From: Octopus vulgaris
Lineage: Eukaryota
Length of the DNA: 64,000 nucleotides
Direction: 5' to 3'
Assembly: GCA_951406725.2 (NCBI GenBank)
Contig: OX597815.1
Coordinates: forward strand, 120,342,001-120,406,000
Shown: positions 19,930 to 56,434 of the stretch, one piece after another
How positions within the stretch are numbered: the stretch's first letter is position 1
How the letters are laid out: each line of letters starts with the position of its first letter
Notes under the pieces: model-generated
The model's input: the letters and a program-made list of their open reading frames with translations, nothing else
Database searches by the model: none
What the model was told of the DNA's origin: nothing
Program-made: the position numbers and the translations under genes

Positions 19930-21202
19930 TTGGGTCATCCCATAAATAATGCAGTTCTTTTAATTGCATGAACTAAAAGTCGGAGGGGGACGGGATAAGC
20001 TGCCTGCATCAACTTGCTATAAAAGCAGGTAGTAATTTTACCTTGTACTTATTCTTAGTGCAAGTTTTGAAGAGTGCAGTTCGATTTTAACAATTATTTT
20101 TTCAAAGCTATAATGGAAATGAAAAAGTAGCATATTCAGCATATTTTGCTTTACCAGTTCAGTAAAGACAACAACGCAATGGAAAGTGCAAGGAATATTA
20201 ATGCAGTATATGGGGATTAGACAATAAGTGTAAACCAGTGTCAACGGTGGTTCCAGATATTCCGAACCGGAAACTACAGCCTAGAAGACGAACCTCGTCC
20301 TGGAAGATCTGTAGAGCACGACAAGGACGTCCTGCAAACCCTGGTGGAATAAAATCTCATCGTAACTGTTGAGGAACTAGCTGAGAAACTTGGATTTGGT
20401 CATTCAACTATTCGTCGACGCCTGTGTGCTATCGAAAAAGTTAGCAAATTGGGTAAATGGGATCCTCACAGATTTTTCGAGTCTAATCGCGCGCAGAGAG
20501 TGAATGTGTACTCTTCTTTACTGTCACGTCTCACGAATGAACCTTTTTTTCGAGCCGAATAGTGACTGATGACGAGAAATAGGCTCTCTATAAAAATGTC
20601 AGCGCTGAAGACAGTGGATAGGGAAAGGAGAAACACCGACACCCCAGGCTAAAGAAGGTCTTCACCCACGTAAGGTGTTGTTATCTGTTTGGTGGGATAT
20701 GAAAAGTTTAGTCCACTCTGAACTTTTAAACCCAAACCAAACGATAACAAAAGAGATTTACTGCGAGCAGCTTGAGCGGCTTAAGTCGGCGCTAGAAGAA
20801 AAACGATCATCTTTGGTTTCAAGACGAAAGGTGTTCTTCCATCAGGATAATGCTCGGACACATACAGCACAGAAGACATTCCAAAGGCTGGAGCAGTTTG
20901 AATGGGAAACGATGCCCCACCAATCACATTCGCCTGACATTGCCCCGTCTGATTATCATTTATTCTGCAGTCTTCAAAATCAGTTGAATTCTGTAGACAA
21001 GGTCAGAACAGTATTGGCAGAGTATTTTTCGTCATGGACAAGTGAATTTTGGAAGAGGGTCTTTGCAACTTTACCAGATAGATGGAAGAACATAGCAGAA
21101 AATGAAGGAGAGCTTATTGTAGATTAAAAAAGAATTTTGTTTATCTTAATTTTGAAAAATAAAAGAAGTATAAAATACCGCATTATTTATGGGATGACCC
21201 AA
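19930..21202 (+). mobile_element. Near full-length mariner element, transposase pseudogene
   Basis: TIRs TTGGGTCATCCCATAAATAATGC, TA flanks; LLSVWWD, HQDNAR, HSPDIAPSDYHLF. Confidence 0.93.
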
Positions 21203-30180: not shown

Positions 30181-30244
30181 TGACCGCGTGTGTATCGTCG
30201 TCGATTTTCTTTCTCTGTCTTCCCTTCTTTGGACTTTTCCCATA

Positions 30245-30277
30245 CTTCTGATGAAGATGTCCGCTCGAAACGTAAAA
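30245..30277 (+). ncRNA. Minimal type I hammerhead motif in a ~200-bp repeat
   Basis: UU-CUGAUGA-A-GAUG..GCUC-GAAA-CGUA-AA; same repeat family as 36915-37125. Confidence 0.6.
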
Positions 30278-30592
30278 TCCTCTTTCTTTTCTTTCCTTTC
30301 CCGAGCGTCCAATAACACTACACTTCTTCCACGTCCTCGCATTGTTGTTTTTTCCTGCTTGTTCTTGTTTGGATTGTGTGTGTATATATATACATATGTG
30401 TGTGCATGTGTGTGTGTGTATATGTATAGATATGTGTACATACATATACATATGTATATGTATATATATATACGTATATACATGCATGTGTGTGTGTCTC
30501 TCTCTCTATATGTACATATTTTCGTATTATTTTTTGTTTTTTGTATTTATATTCGTGTAACATCGTCCGTTTTTCTGTTCTTGTTTCATATA

Positions 30593-30734
30593 CATTCGAT
30601 CCTTTTTCCAAGAAATCTAATGCTCATAGCTTAGTTTTTTCTGGGAGCTGGCCAGATCGGAGCAATCTCAAGATTAATTATCCGAAATTGCGAGGATGAT
30701 CCGGTTCTTGACTGAAGATTAGAGGCTTCGAATG
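30593..30734 (+). ncRNA. Non-circularly permuted hammerhead candidate, family B
   Basis: GCAAU-C 30662-67, UCAAGA/UCUUGA stem I, GAAA-UUGC 30684-91, CUGAAGA 30712-18; stem II degenerate. Confidence 0.65.
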
Positions 30735-31400
30735 ACCCATCCGTGTTTTTTGTATCATCTATTTGAATGTTTTGCGTTCTTGTCCCACTTTGTATTTATA
30801 TATATATATATGGATTAAAGTTTCGTGAGGACTGGTGTAGGATCAGTAGGCAAGACATTGTTGAATGACTTTTCACGTCCTATTTCGTTTAGTCTTATAC
30901 TGAATAACTCAACAAGAACGGCAATTTCTCTTCCCTTCAGGTGACAGCCGATAAGACGAACCATGATTCATCAATATTACAAACACCTGCTTTTTTTTTC
31001 TTGAAAAAATAAAATAAAATAAAAGAATTCAATTCTCAGCTTTCATTTGGACACAAATATTTGCACAAACATGACAAAGGAAAATTCCTTGTTATGCAAT
31101 TTCATTTGCGATATGCATGGACCGTTGTGGTTTTCACACTAAGTAGTTCACAGTTTCTAACGTTAATTTGCTTTTAGTTTAGAAATGTGTAAGAGAAGGA
31201 CATGATTGTGTATAGGTGCAGGCATAGCTGTGTGGTTTAGAATTTCGCTTTACAACCACAAGTATTCGGGTTCGGTTTCACTGGGGTGGGGCAACTTAGA
31301 CAAGTACCTTCAACCATGGTCCTGAGCCGACTGGTACCTAAATTTGTTAGACGGATACTGTGTAGAAGCCTGTCACACACACACACAGACACGTACGTAC

Positions 31401-34577: not shown

Positions 34578-34810
34578 CTCCTTACCTTCGTAACGCGAAG
34601 TAGATAAAACAGGGGACAACTGATGAAGAGAATGTTCTTTTTGTTGTACGTCTCGTGTCTGTTTTTTTTCGTTTTTCGAAAAATAGTTCGTTTTCTATGT
34701 TTTTGTTTTTTTATGTTCTCGTTTCTCATTCTGTCCACGTTCTTTTTTTGATGCCCTGTACCCATATATGCATGTATATATACATATATATGTAGGTATG
34801 TACATATATG
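34578..34810 (+). mobile_element. 5'-truncated family A repeat (half of the permuted HHR plus conserved tail)
   Basis: CCUUC-GUAA..GGACAA-CUGAUGA-AG, then tail gccctgtacccatatatg. Confidence 0.55.
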
Positions 34811-35139
34811 TATGTATATATGCATATATTTATATATTATACATACATACATACATACATACATACATACATACATACATACATACATACATACATACAT
34901 ACGTACATACATACATATGCATATATGTATATATATGTGTATGACGAATGGTCTATTTACTCGGACCTATTGTTTAATTGTGTTTATGTATGTATTTTTA
35001 GACATGTAAAAGTATATACACTCTGCTTATGCATGTATATGTGTATATATGTATATGTATAAGTCTATATGGATATTTCTTCATATCTTTATATATATCA
35101 AATTATACGCGTATCCTGTTTCATGTATTAATATATTTG

Positions 35140-35713: not shown

Positions 35714-37018
35714 CACAGAATAATAGATATGCAGACAGGTATTTTATTTGTTTACGAGCAAGTAAATAGACAAAAGCTGACCGACATGACAGACAGATAA
35801 ACCAATACGTAGAGTGACTGCGAAAGATAATAATGAGGAAAATGAGAGATAAACTGTGATAGACAATTCGGTGAGTAAATAAATAATTGTAATAATAGAC
35901 GGTCGGGTACACCCATCTTCACAAACATATTGGCAAACGTGCATACATGCCGACACACATGCGTGCGCGCTCACACACAGAGACACATATGTATGTATAT
36001 ATGAATGTATGTATGTATGTATGTATGTATGGTAAAAAGACATACATTCATACACATGTGTGAATGTGTGCGCGTGTATATATTATACATATACTATATT
36101 TTATGCATATTCTTTTACACACATACACATACATATAGAGTATGTATGTGTACACACGCACACACACACGCACATATATAGATAGATAGGCAGATGTACA
36201 TGTATATATATTTATATAAGAATATATATTCATATAAATATGTGTGCGCGCGCATGCGTACGGGCTCAGTTCCACACACGCACACAGACACACGTACATG
36301 CACACATACACACACGCGCGCGCGCGCGCACACACACACACACTCACACACAAACGCTCTCAAACTCACGTACGTCCAAGTGAGTGAGCCACGTAGATAT
36401 ATAGATAACGTAAATAAGGTGGAAAATACACATATTATGACCGAAAAATTGAATCAGATGTAAAAGATTTGAATGAGTTAAACAATTGAAAGCATTCACA
36501 GAACAAGCTCAATCTAAATATGCAAGCTAGTCACTGAGAAGAGCAATCGAATTTAGGTCATTGGAACATAGGATATACCTGTGCTGTCTGTGCAATATTG
36601 GGTCCAACGAGGTGTTTACAATGTGAACAAATCACAAATTGTAGCTTTTGTTTTGTTTGAAGACTAACTGTAAATAGGAGAGCGTTTGTTTTAGACGTTT
36701 AAGATAGACCTTCTTCATCACGGGCGTATGCAAGTATGTGTGTGGTGTGGATGGTAGCTTTATTTAGTTTGTTTTAAGTCTACGCGAGAATTTGATCACA
36801 CACACACACACACACACACACACAAAGACACACACATATATATATATATGTATGAGAGAGAGAGAGAGAAAGAAAGAGACACACACATATGTATATGTAT
36901 GTAGATATATATAAAGTTAATCCAAACATGAAAACACAAACAGAAAACACAACAACGCGAGGATGTGGAACAAGTATAGTGTTATTGGACGCTCAGGAAA
37001 GGAAAGAAAGAAGGAGGA

Positions 37019-37051
37019 TTTAACGTTTCGAGCGGAGCTCTTCGTCAGAAA
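37019..37051 (-). ncRNA. Minimal type I hammerhead motif, intact core
   Basis: UUU-CUGACGA-A-GAGC-UCC-GCUC-GAAA-CGUU-AAA. Confidence 0.7.
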
Positions 37052-37142
37052 CATAGAAAAAGGAAAGATCTATGGAAGGGAAGACGGAGGAAATAAAATC
37101 GCCAACGATACACACGCGGTCACTCGCACGCACGCACACACA

Positions 37143-37354: not shown

Positions 37355-37480
37355 GCCTGCTCGCTTAGCCAGCAGGGTGGCGTCATTCGAAGGCTAAAAC
37401 AATGCGAACGCATTGTGACCAGCGATGTGTAACTACATCTGATGGACTGGTCGGTCACGTCATCACGTGATATATATATA

Positions 37481-38452
37481 TGCATGTATATATACATGTA
37501 GATGTAGGTACGTACATATATGTATGCATATATTTTATTTATTACATTATTGTATGACTGAGCGCCCTCGCGTCGATTCGATTCGATTCGTTTCGTTTCG
37601 TTTCGTTTCTTCTTCTCCCAGTACATTTTTTGTATATAATTATGACGCGAAACTCTATACCTCTTTACTTAACCTTCCCTTCTCTCCCTTTCTCTCTCTC
37701 TCTCACTCCTCCTCATCTCTCTCACAGCCGTTTGTCTTCCTCTATCTCTCTCTCCCTTTCACTCCTCCTCATCTCTCTCACAGCCGGCCAAATACTTCCT
37801 TTTGCATGCGGCCTCCTAACTGTAAACACACGGTTTTCTTGCGCTCCTTGAATCTCTCCTCGTCTAGGCAAAAAAGGCCCTCTTTGGTTGTTTTCTTGTT
37901 TGTTTTTATTTCTTGTATTGTATTTTTTTGTAATTGTATTTTTATTTTGTATTTTATTTTGTATTTTATTTTGTAATTTTATTTGTATCGTTTTCACGAC
38001 CTGTTTGCGTCACATTTTGTTCTTTCCTTGTTTTTACCCCTCTGCGAAGTAATTTTCTTTAATTTTTTCGCAGGAAGGGCTAGTTCGACGAGTTGTGTTC
38101 TGTCCTCACCTTCGAAACACGCTGGAGTTGAACTAGGGACAGCTGATGAAGGGGATTTTTCCTTGTGTAGTTTGTCTTGTACTATGTTTTTTCGTTGTAA
38201 AAAAAGGTCCGTTCCATGCTTGTTTTTACGTTTTCGTTCTCGTTGAATTCTGCGTCTATTTGTGGTGTCCTGTACTCACGTATATATATTTATATATGCA
38301 TGTATTTATACATGTAGATGTAGGTACGTACATATATGTATGTATGTATGCACATATTTTATCTATTACACTATTGTATGACTGAGCGATCTCGCGTCGA
38401 TTCGATTCGATCCGTTTCGTTTCGTTTCGTTTCTTCTTCTTCTCCCAGTACA
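37481..38452 (+). mobile_element. Non-coding element with about 150-bp terminal direct repeats (unit about 820 bp), family A
   Basis: 37481-37625 is repeated at 38297-38452; contains the permuted HHR. Confidence 0.75.
38037..38154 (+). ncRNA. Non-circularly permuted hammerhead candidate, family A
   Basis: UGUGU-U 38094-99, CUGUCC/GGACAG stem I, GAAGG/CCUUC stem II, GAAA-CACG 38114-21, CUGAUGA 38143-49, 10-bp extra helix. Confidence 0.75.
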
Positions 38453-38455
38453 GTT

Positions 38456-38514
<59 letters not shown>

Positions 38515-52237: not shown

Positions 52238-52375
52238 TTTTTTCGTTCGGCGTCAACAGCCCTTCTTATCTTGTTTTTCCCTGTCCCGTCTTTTACTGTT
52301 ATATTTTTTTACTGTTTATATTTTTGTACTGTCGTTACTGTCCTGTTTTTTTACCATTTTTTTACCATTTTTTAC

Positions 52376-52506
52376 CCCTCTGCGAAAAGATCTCAGAATT
52401 CTAATTGATTTGCTTTTCGCAGGAAGGAAAGTTTCTTGTCGAAGATACGTCTCGCTTTTATCCTTCGAAACGTAGAGTAGATGAAACCTTAGCGACTGAA
52501 GAAGGG
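52376..52506 (+). ncRNA. Non-circularly permuted hammerhead candidate, family A, intact core
   Basis: UACGU-C 52446-51, UCGCU/AGCGA stem I, GAAGGA/UCCUUC stem II, GAAA-CGUA 52467-74, CUGAAGA 52496-52502. Confidence 0.8.
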
Positions 52507-52714
52507 TTTTTTTCGTTGTGCTAATTGTCCTGTACTCCATTTTTTGTTGTTTTTTAAAAAATGTCCAGTTCCTTTGGTTTGTGTCTATGTTTTCGTTTCT
52601 CTTTGTGTTCGACGTCCCTTTGGTGTCCTGTACTCATATATGCGTGTATATGTACATGTAGAGGTAGGTACGTACATATATGTTTATATATATGCATATG
52701 TTTTATTTCATTTA

Positions 52715-53003: not shown

Positions 53004-53047
53004 TATATATAAATGAAAGAATGGAGTCGAACGAAAATGTTAAGAAA

Positions 53048-53145
53048 ATTCCTTTACTCTCGACATATGTTTCGAAGACCACATGGTTTCATTCCAAAGG
53101 AATAAAGGGTGTATGATGCAATCTTCTCGTCAGGAAAGAAAGGGA
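53048..53145 (-). ncRNA. Type I hammerhead in the inverted pLTR, intact
   Basis: CUUUC-CUGACGA-GAAGAUUGCAU..AUGUGGUCUUC-GAAA-C-AUAU-GUC-GAGAG. Confidence 0.85.
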
Positions 53146-53417
53146 GCCTCTCTCGGCAACAAGACAAAAATTTCGATGACTGTCTACATGGTAAACAAAA
53201 ATATTAGATAAGTATATCCCTATATTAATTAATAAATTAAAACTTAGCTTATGGTCCAATTCTGTTCAAGTCGTAGATTGGTTCACTTCTATTACTGATA
53301 AGGCCAGCACTAAATTTATCCAATTCGATATATCTAGTTTCTATTCTTCAATCAACCCTATTATACTTAATAAGGCCCTATGGCACGCACACAATAAGGC
53401 AGGCCTCTTCAATTAAT

Positions 53418-55124
53418 GTGATATTGACTGCTAGGAAATCCTTCATCCAGTTCGATAGCAAGTTGTGGGTCCGCAGAGATACCCCTAATGCGTTCGATAT
53501 ACTAATGGGAAGTACAGACAGCGCCCAGATAGCCGATTTGGTCGGAATTTATATTCTTTATGAAATGGCCGACCAATTCCCGGACATCTGTGGAGGTCCT
53601 TATCGCGACGATTGTCTGCTTTACCTCCAAAATGTCTCGAACCAAAAAATACAGAAGGTTAAAAATAGATTAGTTAGGTTTTTTGGTAGAATGGACTTGC
53701 ACATCGTTTTTGACGATGAGTTAACTAAAGCCAACTTCTTAGACATTACCCTCAATTTACAAAATAACTCATACTTCCCTTACCATAAACCCTCCACAAA
53801 TCTTAAGTATATTAGCCTTTACAGTAATCATGCCAAGCCCGTTACCGATAATTTAGTCAAAAACATATCTTTGAGAAATTATTCTAAATTATCTGCCAAT
53901 GTTGACATCTTTAACCAAAAGGCAGGCTTTTATAACGCCGCCTTGGCAAAAGCCGGCTATAAGGACAAAGTGTCATACATAGATTCAGCTCATTCTAAAC
54001 CAATATCTGCTTCTCCAGATAGAATAGTTACTTGTAATAGGAATAGTAGTTCTAATTCTAGTAGTGCCAGCAACACTATGCAAAATATAAATTCTTTACG
54101 GACCAGGGGAGGTAAGCGCCGTTCAACCCCAAATTTTCAACCCAGTAATTTTCCCCTTACTTTCACAAATAACTCTACGTATAAGTCAAAGGCCACTAAG
54201 AACCGTATCTGGTTCGTAATACCTTTCAGTAAACAAATTAAATCGAACCTTCCCTTACAGTTCCGTGAAGCCGTCGCTAGGAACTTTCCCAGAAATTCTA
54301 GATATTATTCTATTATCAATTCCCACATAGTCAAAATCGCTTTCTCTAACACTAGAAATCTTTCACAAATTATATCTTCTCACAATACCAAGCTGATAAA
54401 TAGAGATTCTTCACCCGGGAGTTCCAACATAAATCTTACTAATTCCAACCCATCATACAGTCATACTAATAGGAATAGTATTAATAGTAATAGCAATGGT
54501 AGTAGCGATAGTGTTAACAATGATAATATTAATAATAGTATCAGTCGTGTTAATAACAATGGTAATGTTGATAGTGATAACAATAACGGAGAAATTACTG
54601 ATTGTATTACCATTAATAATACTAATAATAATACGAATAGTGTAGTTGCTAACGCTAATAATAATAGTAACAACAATCATAGCAATAAAAACTTCGTTTC
54701 GATCTCGGAGGACAACCCCAACAGAATTAAATTTTTGTCTAGTAATTCTAAGATCGAGAATTCTATTTACCAGTGTAGAATCTCCCCTGGTACCAATGTC
54801 TTCTTCTATATAGGAGCGTCCTCTTCCCAGTTATCCAAGAGAATTTCAAACCATTATTCAACATTCAGGGATAGTAAAAAACGACATAGTACAGGGCTAA
54901 GTAAATTAGTTTGGCGTCTTAAAGACAATAATATAGATTTCAAGTTAAATTGGTTCATACTGTCTATATCCTTTCCTTTTGATAAGGGCAGGAGATTTTG
55001 TAATATTTTCAACTCTGAGCTCTTCCATATCCTCTTCTCTAAGGTTCCTCTTGTAAACACACTCATAGAGAAATCCTATAAATGTAAGCACTGGCAGAAA
55101 CATACTTTTTACTCTTACAAATGA
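53418..55124 (+). CDS. PLE reverse transcriptase / GIY-YIG endonuclease (truncated, frameshifted remnant)
   Basis: MGS..SAQIADL, YRDD, FLDI, SNH, SIYQ..YIGAS, R..NH; the upstream FDISSFYSSI motif lies in another frame at about 53231-53416. Confidence 0.9.
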   Translation: MILTARKSFIQFDSKLWVRRDTPNAFDILMGSTDSAQIADLVGIYILYEMADQFPDICGGPYRDDCLLYLQNVSNQKIQKVKNRLVRFFGRMDLHIVFDDELTKANFLDITLNLQNNSYFPYHKPSTNLKYISLYSNHAKPVTDNLVKNISLRNYSKLSANVDIFNQKAGFYNAALAKAGYKDKVSYIDSAHSKPISASPDRIVTCNRNSSSNSSSASNTMQNINSLRTRGGKRRSTPNFQPSNFPLTFTNNSTYKSKATKNRIWFVIPFSKQIKSNLPLQFREAVARNFPRNSRYYSIINSHIVKIAFSNTRNLSQIISSHNTKLINRDSSPGSSNINLTNSNPSYSHTNRNSINSNSNGSSDSVNNDNINNSISRVNNNGNVDSDNNNGEITDCITINNTNNNTNSVVANANNNSNNNHSNKNFVSISEDNPNRIKFLSSNSKIENSIYQCRISPGTNVFFYIGASSSQLSKRISNHYSTFRDSKKRHSTGLSKLVWRLKDNNIDFKLNWFILSISFPFDKGRRFCNIFNSELFHILFSKVPLVNTLIEKSYKCKHWQKHTFYSYK

Positions 55125-55351: not shown

Positions 55352-55452
55352 GTTCCCTTTTTTTCCTGATGAGAAGATTGCATCATACACTCTTTATTTC
55401 TTTGGAATGAAACCATGTGGTCTTCGAAACATATATCGAGAGTAAAGGAATT
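55352..55452 (+). ncRNA. Type I hammerhead in the 3' pLTR
   Basis: CUGAUGA 55366-72, 11-bp stem II, GAAA 55426-29, AUC triplet with a C-A mismatch in stem III. Confidence 0.75.
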
Positions 55453-55626
55453 TTGTTAACATTTTCGTTCGACTCCATTCTTTCATTTATTCATATATAA
55501 CACACAAATTTCTGCAAATGAACCCGGAGTTTCAACCGTGTTTCTGACGCGAATTTGCTACCCTGGTATCGGTTCAACGAATTTTCCATGCTGTTGATAA
55601 ACATAGGATAATTCATTCACCTATTG

Positions 55627-55692
<66 letters not shown>

Positions 55693-55790
55693 CAAAATGG
55701 GACAAGAACGCAAAACATCCGGACAACAAGGTGATACAAAAAGGGACAACAAAACATCTAGATAGACGATACAAAAAAAAAGGATGGGTC

Positions 55791-55930
55791 ATTCAAAGCT
55801 TTCTATCCTCAGTCAAGAACCGGATCATCCTCTCAATTTCGGCTGATTAATCTTGAGATTGCTCCAATCTGGTCAGCCCCAAGGAAAACTAAGCTAAGAG
55901 CATTTGATTCCTTGGAAGAAAACATCGAAT
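55791..55930 (-). ncRNA. Non-circularly permuted hammerhead candidate, family B, intact core
   Basis: GGCUG/CAGCC stem II, GCAAU-C, UCAAGA/UCUUGA stem I, GAAA-UUG, CUGAGGA, 13/14-bp closing stem. Confidence 0.78.
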
Positions 55931-56008: not shown

Positions 56009-56124
56009 GATCCTCTATAAATCCAAAATTTTATATTAGAATTTATGGGAGCAACTTTCTTTGAAGGCTCATATAGTTGTTGAATGCTCGAAATAAGGAG
56101 TAGATAGACAGCTGATGAAGGGTC
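56009..56124 (+). ncRNA. Permuted hammerhead candidate, diverged family A-like copy
   Basis: GAUCCU/AGGGUC, CUAUAAAU/AUUUAUGG, GAGCA/UGCUC-GAAA, UUGUU/GACAG-CUGAUGA; one extra nucleotide at the cleavage site. Confidence 0.6.
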
Positions 56125-56213
56125 GTTTCTCTGTGTTTCCTAGTCCTGTTTTCCATTTTTCTCATTGTTTCGTGTTATTTGTACCATTGGTGACGTCCTG
56201 TACATATATGTGC

Positions 56214-56275
<62 letters not shown>

Positions 56276-56277
56276 TT

Positions 56278-56383
56278 GGGGCTGGCCAGATTGGAGCAAT
56301 CTCGAATCTCGAGTATAAGCAGCCGAAATTGCAAAGATAATCTGGAACTCGACTGAGTATAGAAAACTCCGAAAGACCGATCC
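56278..56383 (+). ncRNA. Permuted hammerhead candidate, family B, truncated and mutated
   Basis: GGCUG/CAGCC, CCAGAUU/AAUCUGG, GCAAUC/GAAAUUGC, UCGAG/CUCGA; core reads CUGAGUA; 7-nt duplication. Confidence 0.6.
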
Positions 56384-56434
56384 TTGTTTTCTTTGTATCG
56401 TCTGTCTGGATGTTTTGCGTTCTTGTCCTATTTT

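Follow-up and report, generated by a model that had tools for sequence, protein, structure and literature searches.

Architecture of the 38037-38154 motif

A 118-base motif at 38037-38154 (+) was found to contain all the parts of a hammerhead ribozyme in a scrambled order, within the 64,000-nucleotide stretch of Octopus vulgaris DNA that was analysed here (the window). The conserved hammerhead-type fold is real, and we read the motif as a hammerhead with its blocks in the order S-G-C and a core that is probably open between A9 and G10.1; we predict it to be catalytic (probability of about 0.7). The initial annotation had described a permuted fold at this position; a helix-by-helix coordinate check verified each of its six helices and its core. 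The permutation is non-circular.

The splint helix P0 begins with CCCCU (38037-38041), which forms five Watson-Crick (WC) pairs with AGGGG at the 3' end (38150-38154) and lies flush with a hairpin (38042-38073). The hairpin arms, CUGCGAAG (38042-49) and UUUCGCAG (38066-73), form seven WC pairs and one GU pair, and the 3' end of the hairpin runs straight into G10.1 (38074), the first base of the stem II 5' strand GAAGG (38074-38078). This strand, which is displaced upstream of block S and shows the covariation described below, makes five WC pairs with CCUUC (38109-13). It is followed by the 5' strand of a helix connecting stems I and II (38080-38089), which pairs with 38127-38136 over 10 bp (nine WC and one GU; -14.6 kcal/mol for the cognate duplex). 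Block S (38094-38105) comprises a stem III strand, the GUU triplet and a stem I strand, and a 3-nt linker separates it from block G (38109-38121), which comprises the stem II 3' strand, GAAA (38114-17) and the other stem III strand. The split block C (38137-38149) contains the second stem I strand and CUGAUGA (38143-49). Stem I (38100-05/38137-42) has six WC pairs, and stem III (38094-98/38117-21) has four WC pairs and one GU pair; position 38094 is mostly C in 29 other family copies, where it gives a full WC pair.

All core elements of a hammerhead were present, namely CUGAnGA, GAAA, A15.1-U16.1 and H17, and stems I, II (by way of the upstream strand) and III could all be formed in register with it. 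H17 corresponds to U38099, so that the cut previously expected 3' of this base falls at the correct position of the predicted cleavage site. In the computed minimum free energy (MFE) fold, P0, the hairpin, the I-II helix and stem III were paired, and the strands of stems I and II were left free. The folding energy gave a non-significant z-score of -1.28, which is uninformative here because the fold is pseudoknotted and stems I and II lie outside the score. Rfam searches, both at the gathering threshold and at E<=10, returned nothing relevant to the motif, which also lacks the circular block order of type I-III hammerheads.

Identification of the stem II partner

We used a scan that required only blocks S, G and C together with stems I and III and left stem II free. 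In the window and the first 90 loci it returned 88 matches, of which 60 were distinct, and later it returned 141 matches in eight clusters. In 400 kb of randomly or evenly chosen genome there was one match, and five shuffles gave none.

Nine representatives were compared (families A1-A5 and B1-B3 and a Naiad copy). All nine had an upstream stem II partner that started with G and lay 20-27 nt before U16.1. These partners formed three to six WC pairs, fell into five distinct sequences and gave a cross matrix that was diagonal by sequence type. The downstream partner, in contrast to the upstream one, formed at most two WC pairs in any representative. We then aligned ten copies with MAFFT, blind to structure (59% column identity); in the alignment the Naiad row is shifted by one column, and the A5 copy carries a mutation at 10.1. 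GAAA and CUGAnGA were invariant across this alignment. The upstream stem II was 88% paired, with 18 two-sided changes and a score of 0.827 that was reached in 0 of 500 shuffles, whereas slid controls scored at most 0.21 and the downstream stem II was 55% paired (39.6% in the canonical register) with a score of 0.209, reached in 278 of 500 shuffles; these shuffle counts overstate significance and are not probabilities, because the families are related, were found by a core-dependent scan and are represented by hand-chosen rows.

These results bear on the simplest alternative, a plain type-SGC hammerhead with an intact block C, in which the G-run after CUGAUGA pairs with CUUC across one extra A, and P0 and GAAGG form an inhibitory alternative fold or a switch. 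A weak downstream stem II of this kind is possible in A1, A2, A3 and A5, each of which offers four consecutive pairs (two WC and two GU) at an offset of 1, and the hammerheads of Penelope-like elements (PLEs) usually have an unpaired base preceding stem II; block integrity is also assumed in the type-SGC work (PMC10085705, in the sections drawn on here). Nevertheless, there were only zero or one downstream pairs in A4 and B1-B3 and at most two in the Naiad copy, the downstream stem II showed no covariation, and every change in the stem II 3' strand was tracked by the upstream strand. We consider this alternative quite improbable.

Chance complementarity in a low-complexity repeat is hardly credible. 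The folding z-score would agree with it, as would the shuffle P values for the upstream stem II within single families, which ranged from 0.001 to 0.58. Against it stand six helices, an invariant core, five covarying stem II sequences at the same position and the same layout in other animals. The selection on RNA structure proposed in the initial annotation was supported at the level of families, across which CUGAnGA and GAAA do not vary and covariation is seen in the upstream stem II.

The splint helix P0 and the probable opening of the core

In the preferred reading, the opened S-G-C hammerhead, the bases after CUGAUGA pair with the 5' end of the motif, and the partner strand of stem II is found upstream, immediately following the hairpin. 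When the upstream flank was folded together with the tail, P0 and the hairpin formed one continuous helix in A1-A4 and were nearly flush in B1 and B2. P0 was flush on a hairpin, both with new sequences, in A2, A3, A4 and B2, and was likewise flush in coral-type Naiad loci (7 bp); the sequences in A4 and B were unrelated. The P0 energy matrix was not cleanly diagonal, the cognate pair being best for A3, A4 and B2 only. P0 was weak or absent in the A5 and octopus-Naiad representatives, and the B3 sequence ends short of it. The A2 copy in the window had an MFE fold with a different interior.

P0 and the hairpin would stack as one 13-bp helix. The nested scaffold of the P0-hairpin helix, the I-II helix and stem III would fold first, and once block C and P0 are transcribed, the stem III loop could dock on the two free junction strands, so that stems I and II form as pseudoknots. 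The stacked P0-hairpin helix would place the 3' end at A9 beside the 5' end at G10.1, much like a strand crossover. The CChMVd (+) hammerhead tolerates one extra A between A9 and G10.1 (PMC3705267), and an extra base there is common in PLE hammerheads (PMC4209133). The CChMVd (+) insertion is at the same backbone position but consists of a single nucleotide, compared with two stacked helices and the chain ends in the octopus motif.

Copies, families and the repeat unit

The motif lies in a non-coding repeat unit of family A1 (approximately 790-830 nt) at 37638-38465 (+). This full unit ends at (TA)n and is preceded by a partial extra copy of the 3' tail of the element, a 169-nt pseudo-LTR-like partial tandem at 37470-37638 (+) that is 88% identical to 38286-38465. 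A family A2 copy of the same ribozyme was found at 52375-52507 (+), in which stems I and III and the I-II helix differ in sequence from those of the A1 copy and still pair, as had been noted before. A structural comparison with this copy and the one at 56009 had also been proposed. The A3 copy at 56009-56124 (+) has lost its stem I strand and fails the scan, although other members of its family keep the strand. A family B copy with the same layout and a decayed stem II is located at 30626-30760 (+), and further B copies are located at 55764-55896 (-) and 56278-56403 (+). At 34579-34842 (+) there is a 5'-truncated A-type copy in which GUAA replaces GAAA. The A3, B and PLE insertions at 56009-56403 and 55764-55896 are crowded in (TA)n tracts, a shared target hotspot.

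A first look at the 2.8-Gb genome gave 2,058 candidates for A1 (the best 40 at 95-100%), 2,720 for A2, 2,905 for A3, 3,839 for B1, 630 for B2 and 558 for A4, in overlapping sets that are not copy numbers; A4 was read from one copy. Among 30 A1 loci, an extra direct piece was present in 16 and an inverted piece in seven, and a run of (TA)6 or more followed the core by 180-420 nt in 25, with variable 5' ends. Most A1 copies hold a single ribozyme, and a tandem spacing of 790 nt was seen in one locus. B2 forms 844-nt head-to-tail arrays of up to five copies. In one five-copy B2 tandem, the copies inspected had GAGG for GAAA, and amplification or persistence is therefore possible without an intact core. 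The A and B units have no coding frame of their own, as only low-complexity frames cover them. Family homology stops within about one unit, and no coding partner was detected within 1.5 kb upstream of A/B copies. The fixed 3' ends, variable 5' truncation, partial tandems, inverted pieces and microsatellite target are those of a non-autonomous Penelope-like repeat.

The expectation that genomic copies conserve the core better than the linkers did not hold consistently within a family. In 30 BLAST-picked copies each, core and linker deviations were 0.8 and 2.4% in A1, 1.3 and 0.4% in A2, and 4.1 and 4.4% in A3. We attribute this to neutral decay of copies after insertion, so that selection would act on active source lineages and not on each copy. 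A1 and A2 look young. None of the data sets that contain the motif is recorded as RNA. Four contig sets that we guess to be RNA covered the motif, in contigs that show no ends, strand or circle.

Occurrence in Naiad Penelope-like elements

Naiads were reported without a canonical hammerhead, and only 'core' or 'half core' strings were flagged in the sections drawn on here (Craig et al. 2021, PMC8557442). We read by eye the 52 published Naiad consensus 3' ends (PMC8557442 supplement), approximately 350 nt each. Eight of them revealed the S-G-C order with an upstream stem II strand (Bfor, 3_Chem, Amil, Aacu, Anas, 2_Movir, Obim and Ovul), the splint of 3_Chem and 2_Movir lying outside the roughly 350 nt covered, and the Esco end probably has the same layout. 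As read by eye, the split layout reaches octopus, coral, hydrozoan and ctenophore consensus ends. Another six ends, all from nematodes, appeared by eye to be of type CSG with block C intact or carrying one extra base; this type is known from two metagenomic sequences in PMC10085705, as far as the parts drawn on go. Neither S-G-C nor CSG was recognised by eye in 37 of the 52 ends. In Naiad-1_Movir and in bivalve and hemichordate ends, the place of the hammerhead is taken by a twister-like motif and by another conserved 3' motif.

In the octopus genome, a motif from the octopus Naiad had 212 exact matches, compared with none for a control, in short and decayed 3' fragments. Two Naiad remnants followed 5 kb upstream contained no ORF, no intact Naiad was found in this genome, and a distant Naiad query gave only two weak Naiad-like reverse transcriptase (RT) matches. 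BLASTN of the A/B tails against the Naiad tail detected no similarity.

A motif from the coral Naiad was found in 109 metagenome loci. Among the 66 coral-type loci with enough flank, many of them truncated or decayed, stem III could be formed in 45, stem I in 41, an upstream stem II of at least five WC pairs in 33 and a P0 of at least six pairs in 34, compared with 10 loci for a downstream stem II of at least three. In three coral-type loci, an RT-like frame ended 347-350 nt upstream of the motif. Sequence searches against Pfam and PDB gave no name for these fragments, which we take to be RT-like from a YIDD motif and which by eye resemble published Naiad proteins.

On these comparisons, the motif is likely to be the ribozyme that Naiads were missing, and the A and B repeats may derive from Naiad elements. 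The two groups share (TA)n ends, 5' truncation, partial tandems and inverted pieces, all of them Penelope-like insertion features (PMC8557442, in part), as well as the ribozyme layout; A and B differ in being non-coding and in lacking tail similarity to the octopus Naiad remnant. The split form may be regarded as the CSG/SGC ring with its opening between A9 and G10.1; shifted boundaries in tandem repeats could bring about such a change. More broadly, we lean somewhat towards the view that Naiads from ctenophores to cephalopods, together with tens of thousands of non-coding passengers, use an active seventh topology that is open at A9/G10.1 and held by a helical splint, and that nematode Naiads use an intact CSG form. 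One ring would have different openings, and non-circularly permuted hammerheads would be standard in animal genomes. Naiads would therefore have seemed to lack ribozymes because the ring is opened at different points.

Comparison with known hammerhead systems

The closest known system is the non-circularly permuted type-SGC hammerhead (HRIMA-1), which cleaves in vitro and has a 3-nt linker and an I-II helix (Eckert et al. 2023, PMC10085705). The type-SGC/CSG RNAs and the octopus motif share the S-G-C order, the 3-nt I-II linker, a helix that links stems I and II at their far ends, the pseudoknotted state of these stems, and the full core. They differ in that block C is interrupted in the octopus motif, where the stem II strand has moved to the 5' end and P0 and the hairpin would act as a splint. 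In the parts of that work drawn on here, CUGAnGA and the stem II strand are assumed to be separable by 1-2 nt at most. The split core is a type-SGC-like way of working, with the block order, short linker and I-II helix of this type, but the stem II strand does not lie 0-2 nt after CUGAnGA. The Eckert RNAs also come from metatranscriptomes and metagenomes, with none described in those parts as validated in genomes of known organisms, in contrast to the thousands of animal genomic copies found here.

Metazoan non-LTR retrozymes and PLE minimal hammerheads (PMC4209133; bioRxiv 10.64898/2026.07.22.740005, each in part) are likewise non-coding tandem units with one hammerhead per unit and are proposed to be non-autonomous PLE derivatives. 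As described in the sections drawn on, these hammerheads are of type I and often depend on dimers, whereas the A1 motif, which is not type I, has a stable stem III, a non-circular order and a longer unit of approximately 800 nt. In the open-access literature covered, we found neither a hammerhead with an opening at A9/G10.1 nor a permuted one in a Naiad; the portions of PMC13725137, PMC10162972, PMC3088659, PMC6765202 and bioRxiv 10.64898/2026.07.22.740005 that were covered contained neither.

If the preferred reading is true, a topology would be added beyond the six counted as possible by Eckert et al., and the A9-G10.1 bond would be a natural entry point for the chain. Non-circular permutations, until now a matter of environmental RNA contigs, would be present in many copies on animal chromosomes; the reported absence of hammerheads from Naiads would be overturned; and the scaffold would be one whose activity could be gated through P0. 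The split layout also explains why standard descriptors and Rfam miss such RNAs.

Proposed function of the motif

The ribozyme would cut the RNA of the non-coding Penelope-like repeat after U38099. The products of hammerhead cleavage end in a cyclic phosphate and a 5'-OH. If successive copies of a tandem are cut, a monomer of approximately 790 nt would be freed; its two ends could reassemble the ribozyme, ready for ligation, which would be favoured, or for priming. The likely route is retrotransposition, in which a borrowed Penelope-type reverse transcriptase would copy the monomer into (TA)n. Many near-identical 899-aa frames of a different PLE family are present in the genome. The 615-aa PLE ORF in the window was considered as a source and rejected, as it has an ordinary type I hammerhead of its own and no useful tail similarity to A/B.

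A different function would follow if the fold were real and hammerhead-derived but not catalytic, serving as a binding or priming signal for a Penelope reverse transcriptase. The bond at which the core is opened is not known to be interrupted in any tested natural hammerhead, the B2 tandem was amplified with a broken GAAA, A1 copies neither start nor end at the predicted cut site, and other Naiads have other motifs or none recognised. However, CUGAnGA, GAAA and the UH triplet are kept across families from several phyla while the stems drift, and U16.1-H17 with a free H is hard to explain without cleavage. This alternative is, in our judgement, unlikely.

Alternatively, the active unit might be put together from adjacent tandem copies, or within a circle, with the remaining roughly 700 nt of the monomer looped out of P0 in a CSG-type order and the single-copy fold being secondary; the two modes are not exclusive. 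Block C of a copy could form the same helices with the upstream parts of the copy that follows, tandems of 790 and 844 nt exist, and nematode Naiads have an intact CSG. A single copy, however, holds every part within 118 nt with its scaffold as the MFE fold, and most copies have one ribozyme, which leaves this arrangement very improbable as the principal one compared with the opened single-copy hammerhead.

Other features of the window

Minimal type I hammerheads in which an extra A precedes stem II were found at 37001-37080 (-) and 30234-30296 (+). Such hammerheads gave four matches in 400 kb of random genome and often occur near A/B copies on the opposite strand. Sequences at 53277-55124 (+) and 55355-55460 (+), with an inverted copy near 53020-53200 (-), possibly belong to the Hydra clade, as judged by eye. 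Additionally, a fragment of a Mariner-type transposase (PF01359) is located at 20609-21127 (+).
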